DNA of 64,000 nt, from positions 1,664,001 to 1,728,000 of the forward strand of contig OZ244732.1 in NCBI GenBank assembly GCA_965219345.1, written 5' to 3'. Origin of the DNA: Nitrosopumilus sp. GTDB taxonomy: Archaea > Thermoproteota > Nitrososphaeria > Nitrososphaerales > Nitrosopumilaceae. The notes under the pieces are model-generated. The model saw only the letters and a list, made by a program, of their open reading frames with translations. It made no database searches and was not told where the DNA came from. The position numbers and the translations under genes are program-made. Position 1 is the stretch's first letter, and every line of letters begins with the position of its first letter. This document shows, piece by piece, positions 52,981-56,095 of this stretch.

Positions 52981-53001
52981 CTAAATAACAATGAAGCGAG
53001 T

Positions 53002-53076
53002 AAAAATGAGGGCAATAATGAGCCAACTCTCGTCTGATCAAATGATGATCACGGCATGATCTGAGCCCTCATTTTT
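53002..53076 (+). ncRNA. Archaeal box C/D guide sRNA-like element
   Basis: 12-bp terminal stem; box C ATAATGA 53015-21 (one mismatch), 12-nt guide, D' CTGA 53034-37, C' ATGATGA 53042-48, 12-nt guide, D CTGA 53061-64. Confidence 0.7.
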
Positions 53077-53118
53077 TGATTCTCATTATTCTATTTTAAT
53101 TTTCAAGAGGTCTTACGC

Positions 53119-54266
53119 ATGAACGCAAGACAGCAAAGAGGAAAACAAATAGTTAAAAGACAAGATCAGATTATCAGAATAGATGAGAATCATTACAGGG
53201 TCAATTCACAAAGTAGAGGAAATATCCAGCATGATGTTGTCTCTACCGAGTTTGGATGGTCTTGTTCCTGCGAGGATCGTCTATTTAGAAAGACCTGCTG
53301 CAAGCACATTCATGCAGTAGAGATTTCATTATCAATTAGAAAAGAAGTAGAGAAAATAATCACGGTAGGACAAATTCAAACCGATTGCTGCATACACTGC
53401 AAATCATCTAAAATTAGAAAAAGAGGAATCAGAAAGAACAAGACACATTCGATTCAGTTGTATCAGTGTGGTGATTGTAAAAAATACTTTTCATTTAATC
53501 TTGGCTTTGAAAAGATGCACGCCTCGCCTCAAATAATTGCCAGTGCAATGCAGCTATACTTTACAGGTGAATCCTTAAGATGGGTCCAGAAGTTCCTGAA
53601 ACTTTAGGGTGTCAACATAAGCCATGTTTCTATCTACAAATGGATTAAGAAATACATCAAACTCATGGATGATTATCTAAACACCATAACCCCCCCCCCC
53701 AAGTAGGTGAAAAATGGCACGCAGACGAAGTATGGCTAAAGGTAAAGGGTGCAGAAAATACCTTTTTGCCATGATGGACAACGACACCAGATTTTGGATT
53801 GCCCAAGAGGTCGCAGATTCAAAGTTCAAGCATGATGCTAGAAGCCTGCTAAAGATGGGAAAAACGGTAGCCAAGAAGGTTCCTTCTGTCTTTGTAACTG
53901 ACGGTTTACCAGCTTATAATGATGCCTTCGAGAAGGAATTTGCACCAAAGAACTTTCCTGCACAAGTCAAGCAGGCACGTAAAAGAAGTTCATTTTAGAA
54001 ATCAAGTAGCAAATAACAATATCCAGGAGAGATTGAATGGCGAGTTCAGGGACAGGGAAAAAGTCTTTAGGGGCCTGAAAAAGGATGATAGTCCAGCAAT
54101 TACAGGAATCAAACTGTATCATAACTACACAAGGCCACACATGAGCCTAGACGGTAACACTCCTGCCGATAGAGCTGGAATTGAGATTAAAGGCGATAAC
54201 AAATGGAAGACAATAATCCAAAATGCAAGCCTAACGAAACCAAAGCGTTTAATTTCTACCTTGTAG
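53119..54266 (+). mobile_element. Disrupted IS6-like DDE transposase with N-terminal SWIM finger and zinc ribbon
   Basis: SWIM CSCED....CKHIHAV; CIHC...YQCGDC; WHADE, YLFAMMD..TRFWIA, VTDGL.AY, NN.QERLNG, HNYTRPH; TAG at 53605 and frameshifts at C11 (53690-53700), ~53750 and ~53955. Confidence 0.85.
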
Positions 54267-54374
54267 AAATAACAATGAAAGCCTTTTGACGTTTCCGTCT
54301 TCGTCCATGATTGCCGAATCATGATATAGACGACCCCTGATCAGACGTTACAGTCAGGGGCATTTTTTCTTCAT

Positions 54375-54455
54375 GCCATGATAGTCTAGTGGTAAGACGC
54401 CAGTCTCCTAAACTGGTCATGTAACGTGACGGGGGTTTGATTCCCTCTCATGGCG
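54375..54455 (+). tRNA. tRNA-like gene with CCU (Arg) anticodon and long variable arm
   Basis: Acceptor GCCATGA/TCATGGC plus G73; D arm GTCT-AGTGGTA-AGAC; anticodon arm CCAGT-CTCCTAA-ACTGG; variable arm TCATG-TAA-CGTGA; T arm GGGGG-TTTGATT-CCCTC. Confidence 0.8.
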
Positions 54456-54530
54456 TTTCAGGCGACGGAAGTTAACACGGAGAAGAAAGCTACGATAAGC
54501 TAACAGAATCGAATTAAATAAATAAATACT

Positions 54531-54554
54531 ATGGGTACCCATGGGTACCTATGG
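54531..54554. promoter_or_regulatory. Tandem palindromic operator-like repeats at the antitoxin start
   Basis: ATGGGTACCC-ATGGGTACCT-ATGG; ATGGGTACCCAT is a perfect palindrome. Confidence 0.6.
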
Positions 54555-54784
54555 TAGAAAGTTCAATGTCAGTATCACAGGAATCAAAATTGAAATGGGC
54601 AGCTTTCAAGAATCATCCAAAAGAATCCATGGAGGCTTTGATTAATCGAACTTTCAATTTAGCTTACGTAAATGAAGAACCACTTGATGCAAGAGATATA
54701 TCTGACATTCAGAGATCACTTGCAGATTTTAAAAACGGTAACTTCAAGACTAACGCCCAACTTCTCAAAGAACTAGAAGCTTGA
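54551..54784 (+). CDS. Putative antitoxin (RHH-like N-terminus)
   Basis: K.HPKESME.LI.R and EPL....I.DI.RSL.DFK.G.F.T..QL.KEL; overlaps the toxin start. Confidence 0.7.
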   Translation: MVESSMSVSQESKLKWAAFKNHPKESMEALINRTFNLAYVNEEPLDARDISDIQRSLADFKNGNFKTNAQLLKELEA

Positions 54785-55035
54785 GTTGGATTGCACAGTG
54801 GTCTAACACTGCCAATAAACAACTAAAGAAATTACCAAAAAAAGATCGAAAGAGAATTTTATTAAAGACAGCAGATGTTGAAGAAAATCCTTTTTTGCAT
54901 CTTTCAAAACTATCAGGAGAGCCATTTTTTCGTTTCAGAGTAGGAGATTATAGAATTTTTTGTGATGTAAATAATAAGGAACTGCTAATCATGATTGTCA
55001 AAGTCAAAGGCCGTGGCGGCGCCTACAAGAGATAA
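54781..55035 (+). CDS. RelE/ParE-family toxin
   Basis: A.KQLKKL...RKRI, KL.G..FFRFRVGDYRI, V..R..AY motifs. Confidence 0.9.
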   Translation: MSWIAQWSNTANKQLKKLPKKDRKRILLKTADVEENPFLHLSKLSGEPFFRFRVGDYRIFCDVNNKELLIMIVKVKGRGGAYKR

Positions 55036-55054
55036 CCCGTACTTTTAGAATTAA

Positions 55055-55315
55055 TTATCTGTCCATCTTCTTTTGCAATTTATCTAATCCTTTATCCAAT
55101 TTGACAATTTTTTCTAAATTACTATTATGATTTTTTTCTGTTTCATGTTTTAATTCTTTAATCTGTTTTTCAAGCTCATCTTGTTTTTTGAGTAAACGCA
55201 TAGCAAATCTAGCAACATCCGCATACATTTCAAAATCATCAAGTATTTTCTTTATTACCTGCTTGGTCTTTTCATCCGTCTCTTTAGACATCATGCCTTC
55301 CATAAATGATTTCAT
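55055..55315 (-). CDS. Hypothetical coiled-coil protein
   Basis: 86-aa ORF; start uncertain. Confidence 0.5.
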   Translation of the reverse strand: MKSFMEGMMSKETDEKTKQVIKKILDDFEMYADVARFAMRLLKKQDELEKQIKELKHETEKNHNSNLEKIVKLDKGLDKLQKKMDR

Positions 55316-55381
55316 TTTTATGAAATCCTGTTTCTCCCATCCAGATTAGTGAAAAAATCGGAAACATCCTCTAGGACTATT

Positions 55382-55513
55382 TTATCAATTTTGAACTATG
55401 TTGATATGGATTCAGAAGTGAAAGTCTTGGGATATGGAATTAGTTTGATTTTACTAAATATTGGAATGTATTTTGGAATACCTGCAATTGTTATTATGAG
55501 GATTAGAAAATGA
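55382..55513 (+). pseudogene. Orphan 3' tail of a CFI-box-CTERM-type surface protein
   Basis: LSILNYVDMDSEVKVLGYGISLILLNIGMYFGIPAIVIMRIRK* with no upstream body. Confidence 0.65.
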
Positions 55514-55696
55514 AAGCTTCAGCTCAAATGTACAGTATACCAACTCTTAACTTTGAAAAGTATGTCATTGATGGGATGATGAGTCAAACATTGCAGCATC
55601 AAACTGTTATTGTCTCAACCTTTGTCACTTTTCAGTCAAAAAGTTATAAAGTTTTGTCAGTTTGTTTCATTAATTCTAACAAACATTTTGCATATT

Positions 55697-56095
55697 TCAG
55701 ATAATTGAAAGAGGAATAGAATTTGCGCCACTATCCCATGCAAAAATAGAATCATCATTATAAGGAGATTTTACAATTAATGAGACCAGCCCAAAGAAGT
55801 TATTCGAATCCGTAACAGAAGGTTCCGCTGAACCACTTGGATGAGAATGAACAATTCCAAGATAGCTCATATCAAACGGTAAAAACGAATGAGGGAACCC
55901 TGCAAATGTAGGTCCAGTTTCACTAAAAGGAGGAATTACAAGTCCATCAATTTTGATTTCGCCATCTTTTGATTTTCCTTTTAGTATCAAAATTGCTTCG
56001 TTTGGATGTTTCATTTGGCAATAGGATAAGATACTATCAAGTACATCTTTTTGGATCAATACCTTGCGTTCAAACTTTTTTTTCTTGAATAACAC
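55697..56095 (-). CDS. JAMM/MPN (Mov34) metalloprotease
   Basis: HPNE, VHSHPSG...PS.TD motif. Confidence 0.9.
   Translation of the reverse strand: MLFKKKKFERKVLIQKDVLDSILSYCQMKHPNEAILILKGKSKDGEIKIDGLVIPPFSETGPTFAGFPHSFLPFDMSYLGIVHSHPSGSAEPSVTDSNNFFGLVSLIVKSPYNDDSIFAWDSGANSIPLSII

Follow-up and report, generated by a model that had tools for sequence, protein, structure and literature searches.

In a 64,000-nucleotide (nt) stretch of the genome of a Nitrosopumilus sp. (contig OZ244732.1, positions 1,664,001 to 1,728,000; hereafter the window, numbered from its first letter), the transfer RNA (tRNA) gene at 54375..54455 on the forward strand (the window gene) carries an arginine anticodon on what appears to be the body of a serine tRNA. 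Our preferred interpretation, to which we assign a probability of roughly 55%, is that this gene specifies a serine-identity tRNA with an Arg CCU anticodon and belongs to a transposon-linked family whose anticodon arm changes freely. The analysis establishes the structure of the gene, a separate canonical tRNA-Arg(CCU) in the same genome, the serine-like body, the family and its covariation, a link to mobile elements and an unchanged genetic code; serine charging, decoding and the level of expression are inferred. The window-gene RNA, if made, would read AGG as Ser, in competition with tRNA-Arg(CCU) and tRNA-Arg(UCU). The gene is best read as an archaeal counterpart of the bacterial allo-tRNAs and the nematode nev-tRNAs, and it is predicted to be charged with serine.

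The window gene is a complete class II tRNA gene

ARAGORN called a single tRNA in the whole window, at 54374-54456 on the forward strand, and labelled it Arg (cct). The Rfam tRNA model RF00005 spanned 54375-54455 of the same strand (model positions 1-71) at 62.3 bits (E 4e-11), the gathering score of this model being 29, and the Rfam scan of the window gave no further match at gathering threshold. The gene and its parts are as follows.

54375..54455, forward strand: class II (long variable arm) tRNA-like gene with anticodon CCT and G73 (ARAGORN, Rfam, subfamily model R2, fold)
54407..54409, forward strand: anticodon CCT, which reads AGG (sequence, loop table)
54417..54430, forward strand: 14-nt variable arm with a stem of 4-5 base pairs (bp) and a 3-nt loop (subfamily alignment, pair counts)
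54436..54442, forward strand: T loop TTTGATT, with U56 replacing C56 (sequence; C56 in 7/7 subfamily homologues)

The stems comprise 7 acceptor, 4 D, 5 anticodon and 5 T bp with zero mismatches and one G.U pair, in the T stem. The 7-nt anticodon loop, CTCCTAA, contains U33 and A37, and the anticodon stem has G-C as its fourth pair (G30-C40); the D loop, AGTGGTA, places U at position 20, right after G18G19, and the discriminator, at 54455, is G73. The U56 of the T loop is also present in a second CCT copy in the host genome. When the gene was folded in isolation, it reached -29.7 kcal/mol (z = -3.05), with 0 of 200 shuffles equally stable, and its minimum-energy structure included the acceptor stem, the variable-arm hairpin and the T arm. 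Model R2, which represents the subfamily described below, scored the gene at 92.8 bits. These results demonstrate that the feature is a real tRNA gene with a full cloverleaf. It does not have the UCA anticodon and archaeal 9/4 structure of tRNA-Sec, having instead CCT and a 7/5 arrangement, and the tRNA-Sec families of Rfam gave no match in the window at gathering threshold. An earlier reading made from the letters alone (the sequence-only reading) had described this structure, and every detail of it was recovered at the positions given.

The host has a separate, intron-bearing tRNA-Arg(CCU)

The host genome (1.91 Mb in 2 contigs, 36% G+C) contains many intron-bearing tRNAs. ARAGORN listed 52 tRNA genes in it and Rfam 51 at E <= 0.001, and an ordinary Arg(CCT) was absent from both lists. 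Using halves of ordinary Arg tRNAs as BLAST queries, we located the canonical tRNA-Arg(CCU) at C1 ~638718-638814 on the reverse strand. This gene has perfect acceptor, anticodon and T stems, the anticodon CCT, A20 and a 5-nt variable loop (AGGTC); its T arm equals that of tRNA-Arg(TCG) over 23 nt, and its D loop is split by a 16-18 nt insertion (intron). The search for a separate canonical gene, which the sequence-only reading had proposed as a check, was thus successful. Because this gene exists, at C1 ~638.7 kb, the window gene is extra and is not the cell's tRNA-Arg(CCU).

BLAST with tRNA halves also located Glu(TTC), which has a T-loop insertion, and Leu(TAA), which has two insertions. Since Arg(CCT), Glu(TTC) and Leu(TAA) are all interrupted, hidden intron-bearing genes are normal in this genome. 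Essential tRNAs missed or mislabelled by ARAGORN or Rfam lie at C1 ~638718-638814 (-), 246489-246575 (+), ~869760-869880 (+) and 884452-884605 (-); among them is a probable Trp(CCA), labelled Gln by ARAGORN, whose long intron has C and D box motifs. The genome also encodes a tRNA splicing endonuclease and one seryl-tRNA synthetase (SerRS), at C1 ~857.6-858.9 kb, which has the N-terminal arm domain; neither a second SerRS nor a mobile-element synthetase was found in the host genome, where a single Seryl_tRNA_N match exceeded the cut-off and class IIa cores numbered 5.

The body of the window gene resembles serine tRNAs

We compared the window gene with all 54 tRNA sequences of the host genome by global alignment. 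Its closest relative was Ser(CGA), with 60/82 positions identical, and further relatives were the second CCT copy at C1:1235417-1235498 (59/80), a long-arm TAT copy (61/79) and Ser(TGA) (59/78); no Arg tRNA was among the five closest. Canonical Ser(CGA), at C1:1745780-1745861 on the reverse strand, is conserved in relatives and shares with the window gene the D loop AGTGGTA, the first three acceptor pairs, G73 and a similar layout of the variable arm. It differs in its anticodon (CGA rather than CCT), in its longer arm, in lacking U56 and in its place among core genes, whereas the window gene stands in mobile DNA; relative to Ser(CGA), moreover, the acceptor stem of the window gene is altered on both strands.

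Compared feature by feature, the window gene has the long variable arm, the G73 and the G30-C40 pair of a tRNA-Ser, with CCT in place of the NGA or GCU anticodon. It has C35, U36 and a purine discriminator in common with canonical host Arg tRNAs, and it is without their A20, 5-nt variable loop and Arg-type T arm; an A directly follows G18G19 in 4/4 canonical Arg tRNAs of the host (TCT, GCG, TCG and the intron-bearing CCT). These comparisons indicate that the body of the gene is serine-like. With the canonical CCU gene elsewhere and Ser(CGA) nearest, the part of the sequence-only interpretation that saw an extra, non-canonical tRNA with a Ser-like body holds; its proposal of Ser insertion at AGG, and the spliced intron that it named as a refuting outcome, are taken up below.

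Since SerRS recognises the long arm and G73 and disregards the anticodon, serine charging is predicted: on these rules, the window-gene RNA would be serylated by the host's single SerRS. The strong elements for bacterial-type and archaeal SerRS are G73 and then G30-C40, and G73 is an antideterminant for Haloferax LeuRS (PMC9976931).

The window gene belongs to a family with varying anticodons

The host genome contains nine long-arm G73 genes with non-serine anticodons (CCT, TAT, GAT and CAG twice each, TCT once), and the stems are perfect in six of them. Altogether, we found 30 long-arm genes with non-serine anticodons in 9 genomes (3 genera) and 2 metagenome contigs. Their anticodons are distributed as follows.

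TAT: 6 of 30
GAA: 5 of 30
GAT: 3 of 30, plus 2 with 8-nt loops
CCT: 3 of 30
TAA: 3 of 30
CAG: 2 of 30
CAA: 2 of 30
ACC: 2 of 30
TCT: 1 of 30
TGT: 1 of 30

G73 is present in 30/30 of these genes, and the signature Y32-U33-NNN-R37-A38 in 28/28 of their seven-nucleotide anticodon loops.

Pairing statistics were obtained for the 8-sequence subfamily that contains the window gene (26 stem pairs, 208 cells), in which the anticodons are CCU, UAU, GAA, UAA and ACC, plus an 8-nt loop. Standard pairs occupied 96.6% of the 208 cells, both-sided (compensatory) changes occurred at 11 of the 26 pairs, and 0 of 500 shuffles reached these values, figures that are not probabilities, since the sequences are related and the alignment was fitted to a tRNA model and so favours pairing. 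When the partner columns were slid by 1-3 positions, pairing dropped to 43-60%. Covariation was found at 5/5 anticodon-stem pairs and at four acceptor pairs, and the variable and T arms were almost unchanged. As judged from these alignments, the window gene belongs to a patchy family in Nitrosopumilaceae-type archaea, in which the scaffold and the helices are conserved and the anticodon arm is variable.

BLAST found no full-length match to the window gene among 60 relatives, and no same-anticodon orthologue in 36 genomes of the same genus or 400 genomes of the host's family; this agrees with the earlier description of the gene as foreign or extra. In the 400 genomes, the window gene matched four besides its own. 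Two copies in G194, at L057:6007-6088 (+) and L058:6078-6159 (-), are its closest homologues (77% and 75% identity); their 8-nt anticodon loop, CATGATGA, is perhaps GAU with one extra base, resembling that of a frameshift suppressor. The match in G157 has the anticodon TAT. The other two were rejected as family members: that in G427 turned out to be an ordinary Ser(CGA), and that in G410 is partial, covering 41 nt, and gave no tRNA call by ARAGORN.

Further members came from model and pattern searches. A model search of five same-genus genomes, of which the best 30 loci were inspected, yielded odd members in G036 only. One of them, L052:101-184, is a TGT homologue of the host TAT gene with the same anticodon stem; its acceptor 3' strand is unpaired (4 stem mismatches, 3 of them in the acceptor), as if the 3' end of this copy had been cut off or replaced. 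The subfamily model, run over 151 genomes of the host's family, listed 95 matches, and among the 49 loci inspected there were odd members from G194, G074, G125, G204, G160 and G140, as well as another CCT gene on a different scaffold. Scanning genome contigs with a sequence pattern returned 119 loci, of which most were ordinary bacterial tRNAs for Arg, Ser and Trp (the pattern was too general), with one new relevant match, L110 (Nitrosopumilaceae archaeon, anticodon ACC), and one repeat, L178. The two members on metagenome contigs have the anticodons TAA and GAA, and the arm of the GAA member is one base off that of the window gene. A viral origin of the family was rejected, as two subfamily patterns gave 0 matches in viral contigs.

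Outside the family as counted here, L131 (an Aenigmatarchaeota metagenome-assembled genome) and L133 (an uncultured archaeon) contain tRNA-like genes of 98 nt that combine G73 and a long arm with an unusual anticodon region ('caat' in ARAGORN). Similar odd tRNAs may therefore occur in DPANN archaea.

The family is linked to mobile DNA

The window gene is flanked by the following features; the open reading frames (ORFs) of the second encode products of 77 and 84 amino acids (aa).

53119..54266, forward strand: decayed DDE (IS240/rve-like) transposase in three ORF pieces, 53119-53607, 53714-53998 and 53919-54266 (Pfam, tblastn, neighbour clustering)
54551..55035, forward strand: two small overlapping ORFs, toxin-antitoxin-like, one of 77 aa with no family and one of 84 aa, a ParE/RelE-type toxin (PF05016, E 6.3e-10 for 54781-55035)
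53007..53071, forward strand: C/D-box-like small RNA motif, identified by eye from its terminal stem and its boxes C, D', C' and D (unmatched in Rfam at gathering threshold)

The ParE/RelE-type toxin pair and the decayed transposase beside the gene, both recognised by Pfam, bear out the foreign-DNA setting that the sequence-only reading had proposed. The other in-genome members have transposases and restriction-modification, HNH, GmrSD, AIPR and Fic genes as neighbours; Ser(CGA) and Val(CAC) of the host have core-gene surroundings. As an unbiased marker of mobile DNA, we used repeats of at least 400 nt from a self-BLAST of the genome, which replaced a transposase-distance test biased by queries from the odd tRNAs' own flanks. 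By this measure, 8/11 odd tRNAs lie within 500 nt of a repeat, compared with 7/44 canonical tRNAs (Fisher p = 5.6e-4; Mann-Whitney p = 7e-5).

Clustering of neighbouring ORFs revealed one DDE transposase family within 1.5 kb of the tRNA at 11/19 loci with flanks, and the decayed transposase of the window is a member of it. The transposase stands on either side of the tRNA and in either orientation, mostly at gaps of 26-250 nt. Two element copies have a CAG tRNA-like gene 50 nt before the start of the transposase, and a comparison of the upstream regions of 11 copies showed that a C/D-box-like RNA fills the same slot in three others. These three RNAs, at 53007-53071 in the window and before the transposases at C1 ~212581 (-) and ~1035555 (+), lie 40-50 nt upstream; they have the stem and boxes in common and entirely different guide regions. 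The CAG pair itself, C1:1220106-1220191 (-) and C1:1730533-1730618 (+), is 86/87 identical and the adjoining transposase DNA 77%, which indicates either strong constraint or gene conversion on the tRNA part. In G194, a duplicated unit of 405 nt (84% identical) terminates exactly at the tRNA 3' end. We considered the window gene as the tRNA-derived-repeat boundary of an element and rejected this, as its 3' end is unrepeated: an att-like repeat was not found in the window, where the last 19 nt of the gene occur once at <=3 mismatches. Guide-like complementarity was likewise not seen, as the 13-nt anticodon-arm cores of 8 members gave only scattered genome matches at <=1 mismatch, with no pattern.

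Some further features of these surroundings are recorded here. A tandem, partly palindromic unit of 9-10 nt with a GGGTACC core lies at 54531-54552, upstream of the 77-aa ORF, and resembles an operator for autoregulation of the pair. At window position 53690, in the region of the decayed transposase, contigs of X6 and a minor contig of X5 have a 2-base deletion that is absent from X3 and X4, apparently a length polymorphism among cultures or samples of one organism. A search for RNA runs covering 53600-55100 returned none, and the contigs of four runs that span the whole of 53000-56000 are 8-9 kb long and hence DNA. The host also has two class I tRNA-like genes, C1:1438222-1438293 (+) and C1:787950-788025 (-), whose anticodon loops measure 8 nt ('tccg' and 'tcgt' in ARAGORN); they score 48.6 and 39 bits in Rfam and lie 24 and 151 nt from transposase-like sequence.

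The genetic code is unchanged

We aligned 820 host ORFs with 800 kb from a genome in another genus, restricting the count to cells for which the relative has a different codon. The residues aligned with the three codons in question were as follows.

AGG: R 56%, K 18.5%, S 2.4% (comparison Ser: AGA 4.8%, CGT 2.8%)
ATA: I 45.6%, S 1.8% (comparison Ser: ATT 2.0%)
CTG: L 67.6%, S 1.9% (comparison Ser: CTT 1.1%, p = 0.09)

By these alignments the code is unchanged, AGG, AUA and CUG still standing for Arg, Ile and Leu. A reassignment of AGG, suggested by a small sample in which 2 of 17 AGG codons aligned with nothing but Ser, was not upheld at genome scale. AGG is used at 5.1 per 1000 codons, compared with 20.5 for AGA. 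Because the proteome shows no sign of AGG as Ser, any Ser-at-AGG activity must be weak, conditional or absent. The Ser insertion at AGG and the decoy role put forward in the sequence-only reading are hypothetical: AGG aligns genome-wide with Arg and not with Ser, and the promoter spacing of the window copy is damaged, as set out next.

Evidence against a serine-inserting tRNA, and alternative explanations

The state of the window copy was assessed from its upstream module.

54334..54374, forward strand: upstream module with a 7-bp hairpin (54334-54360) and a T-rich box (T run 54363-54368) (8 subfamily upstream sequences side by side; A/T-run count)

Several observations weigh against our interpretation. 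In the window copy the T-rich box stands 14 nt from the gene, compared with 29-38 nt in 7 homologues that have the same hairpin and box, and the longest A/T-only run at -42..-18 is 3 nt; the corresponding run is at least 6 nt in 35/37 canonical tRNAs and 8-15 nt in the other 8 odd tRNAs. From this comparison, about 20 nt appear to have been lost between the TATA-like box and the gene. In addition, U56, where all seven subfamily homologues have C, would weaken the G19-C56 elbow pair. Because the promoter spacing is some 20 nt short and U56 is present, the window copy is probably poorly expressed or silent. Beyond the window copy, 1-3 stem mismatches in 3/9 in-genome members suggest that part of the family is decaying, and Ser decoding of AGG, ATA or CTG leaves no trace in the proteome by the 820-ORF test. 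The 14-nt variable arm, with its 3-nt loop, is shorter than the arms of the host Ser tRNAs (15-16 nt), and C35, U36 and G73 equal those of the host Arg tRNAs; because archaeal Arg identity rules are not established, arginyl-tRNA synthetase (ArgRS) could also charge the RNA.

This last point leads to the view that ArgRS, alone or with SerRS, charges the RNA through its anticodon, making it a harmless spare, long-armed tRNA-Arg for the rare AGG codon. A37 and A38, in addition to C35, U36 and G73, are shared with the canonical Arg tRNAs of the host, and AGG pairs with Arg in alignments genome-wide. Arg identity in yeast lies mostly in C35 and U/G36, position 20 being marginal, and the archaeal Arg entry in the identity table of the same paper is blank (PMC9976931). 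We nevertheless judge this view distinctly unlikely: the window gene has U20 where 4/4 canonical Arg tRNAs have A20, its body is closest to Ser and not to Arg tRNAs, and the same G73 scaffold bears Ile, Phe, Leu and Gly anticodons in relatives. Since that scaffold carries several anticodons and the canonical tRNAs for Ile, Leu and Val in the host have A73, one scaffold cannot suit each cognate enzyme. The extra arm might alternatively be a short non-canonical intron of the variable loop, spliced out to leave a class I tRNA-Arg, as the sequence-only reading had allowed. The host does encode the splicing endonuclease and does have non-canonical introns, in the D loop of Arg(CCT) and the T loop of Glu(TTC), as well as a variable-loop insertion in Val(CAC). 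That insertion, however, ends in AGGTC, a loop typical of the class I tRNAs of the host, and differs in length and sequence in a sister species, whereas excision from the window gene, of an intron measuring only 9-10 nt, would leave no normal variable loop and nothing like AGGTC. The arm is kept as a helix (95% of cells paired among the 8 subfamily homologues), it is nearly identical in homologues with other anticodons and resembles that of true tRNA-Ser, and the remainder of the body is not Arg-like. A bulge-helix-bulge scan of the window gene gave a best central helix of 3 of 4 bp, the same simple scan missing the Val(CAC) control and a general scan being unspecific. The homology arguments, with these scans left aside, make an intron extremely improbable.

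The close association with one transposase family suggests another possibility, namely that the tRNA shape serves the mobile element as a non-translating module, with no coding role for the anticodon: it might act in RNA processing or as an insulator, through cleavage by RNase P or tRNase Z, mark a landing site or form a structural end of the transposable unit, and be perhaps interchangeable with the C/D-box-like RNA. Such a role would account for the transposase within 1.5 kb at 11/19 loci, at gaps down to 26-71 nt and on either side or orientation, for the tRNA-like gene in two copies and the C/D-box-like RNA in three at the same upstream slot, and for the G194 unit that stops at the tRNA 3' end. 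The CAG copies (86/87 identical, against 77% for transposase DNA), the two members with 8-nt anticodon loops and the proteome without a miscoding trace are also consistent with it. However, U33, purine 37 and A38 are kept in 28/28 seven-nucleotide loops while the anticodon varies, which is the signature of a decoding loop, and G73 in 30/30 genes points to a constraint from aminoacylation. Moreover, transposases are missing from the vicinity of some members (for the GAT copy at C1:951659 the nearest lies 15 kb away), and the anticodon arms are complementary to other genome sites no more than by chance. We therefore regard a non-translating module as unlikely. It is very unlikely, in our estimation, that the whole family consists of functionless, decaying tRNA-Ser duplicates, scattered by mobile DNA, whose anticodons drift under A/T-biased mutation. 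Several anticodons do lie one G-to-A step from Ser (UGA to UAA, CGA to CAA, GGA to GAA); the TAT copy at C1:1038939 is identical to Ser(TGA) at 64/83 positions and to Ser(GCT) at 62/84; stem mismatches occur in three in-genome members and in one from G036; the distribution is patchy; and the promoter of the window copy is damaged. Against drift stand the compensatory changes that hold 96.6% of cells paired across genera, the invariant G73 and loop signature, the perfect stems of 6/9 in-genome members, a TATA-like box at the normal distance in 8/9 of them and the much better conservation of the CAG pair than of its flanks.

A serine-identity tRNA of a transposon-linked family remains our preferred interpretation of the window gene. 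Beyond it, the serine-scaffold tRNAs, with interchangeable anticodon arms, and the C/D-box-like RNAs, with interchangeable guide regions, which share one slot beside one DDE transposase family, might be functional RNA cargo of an archaeal mobile element, an idea to which we give only a small chance. It could take the form of a programmable missense-tRNA weapon, in which conditional Ser insertion at selected codons would serve as a toxin, abortive-infection or addiction device in defence islands, or that of an RNA component that would regulate or direct the transposon. If true, either form would have no described precedent among archaeal systems.

Comparison with known systems

The bacterial allo-tRNAs are serine-type tRNAs with a long variable arm and foreign anticodons, of which UAU forms the most abundant group, alongside those for AGA/AGG (Arg) and UUA/UUG/CUA/CUG (Leu) (Mukai et al. 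2017, PMC5389517). They occur near toxin-antitoxin systems, include a UAU pseudogene that overlaps a transposon-related ORF, and in some cases have stem-destabilising mutations; some members are inactive, and the activity of some was shown in Escherichia coli (PMC5389517). The window gene likewise pairs a non-serine anticodon with a body of serine type and has toxin-antitoxin and transposon genes nearby. The repertoires overlap strikingly, TAT being the commonest here as well (6/30), with CCT, TCT, TAA, CAA and CAG besides. The toxin-antitoxin, transposon and stem-mutation features are all paralleled in the archaeal family. In contrast, the allo-tRNAs have an 8/4 or 9/3 acceptor/T-stem arrangement, whereas the window gene and its family have 7/5; an eighth T.G acceptor pair that ARAGORN draws in the window gene is also drawn for ordinary host tRNAs. 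The allo-tRNAs are also bacterial (Clostridia, Proteobacteria, Acidobacteria and soil metagenomes), whereas the present family is archaeal.

The nev-tRNAs are class II tRNAs with anticodons other than those for Ser and Leu, chiefly Gly CCC and Ile UAU; they are weakly expressed and mostly match rare codons, and all 115 have A73 and are leucylated (Hamashima et al. 2012, PMC3333845). A match to a rare codon is common to both, AGG being rare in the host as well (5.1 per 1000). The nev-tRNAs differ in their A73 and leucine identity, the archaeal genes having G73 in 30/30 cases, and in being nuclear eukaryotic genes with no reported transposon link. From these comparisons, the window gene would appear to work like the allo-tRNAs and nev-tRNAs and to be a member of neither group, because it has neither the 8/4 or 9/3 fold nor A73. 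The tRNA-Ser(CAG) of Candida and the CTG clade is a third case of a serine-identity tRNA with a foreign anticodon, that of the leucine codon CUG, which there is reassigned or ambiguous genome-wide. The host genome similarly contains two G73 long-arm CAG genes; unlike in the CTG clade, its CTG codons align with Leu (67.6%) and not with Ser (1.9%).

In the sections cited, a 2014 review lists V-arm tRNAs with foreign anticodons only for nematodes (PMC4033280), and a paper on the thaumarchaeal mobilome mentions tRNA genes only as integration targets (PMC6563490). We found no report of archaeal long-arm tRNAs with a contradictory anticodon in full-text searches of an incomplete set of papers, although supplementary tRNA lists (PMC5389517, PMC8450103) may hold cases. 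Annotation is affected as well: genes of this kind are labelled tRNA-Arg, -Ile or -Leu by their anticodons, and the true tRNA-Arg(CCU), hidden by its intron, is missed by ARAGORN and the Rfam scan. The archaeal family keeps the normal 7/5 fold, its helices and an invariant G73 while its anticodons change freely. Its members are associated with insertion sequences and with defence or toxin islands, and the ammonia-oxidising archaea in which they occur can be grown. With it, the phenomenon, with its recurring UAU, Arg-AGR and Leu anticodons, is now found in all three domains of life, and this recurrence suggests a general evolutionary route to, or a general use for, missense tRNAs built on a serine scaffold.

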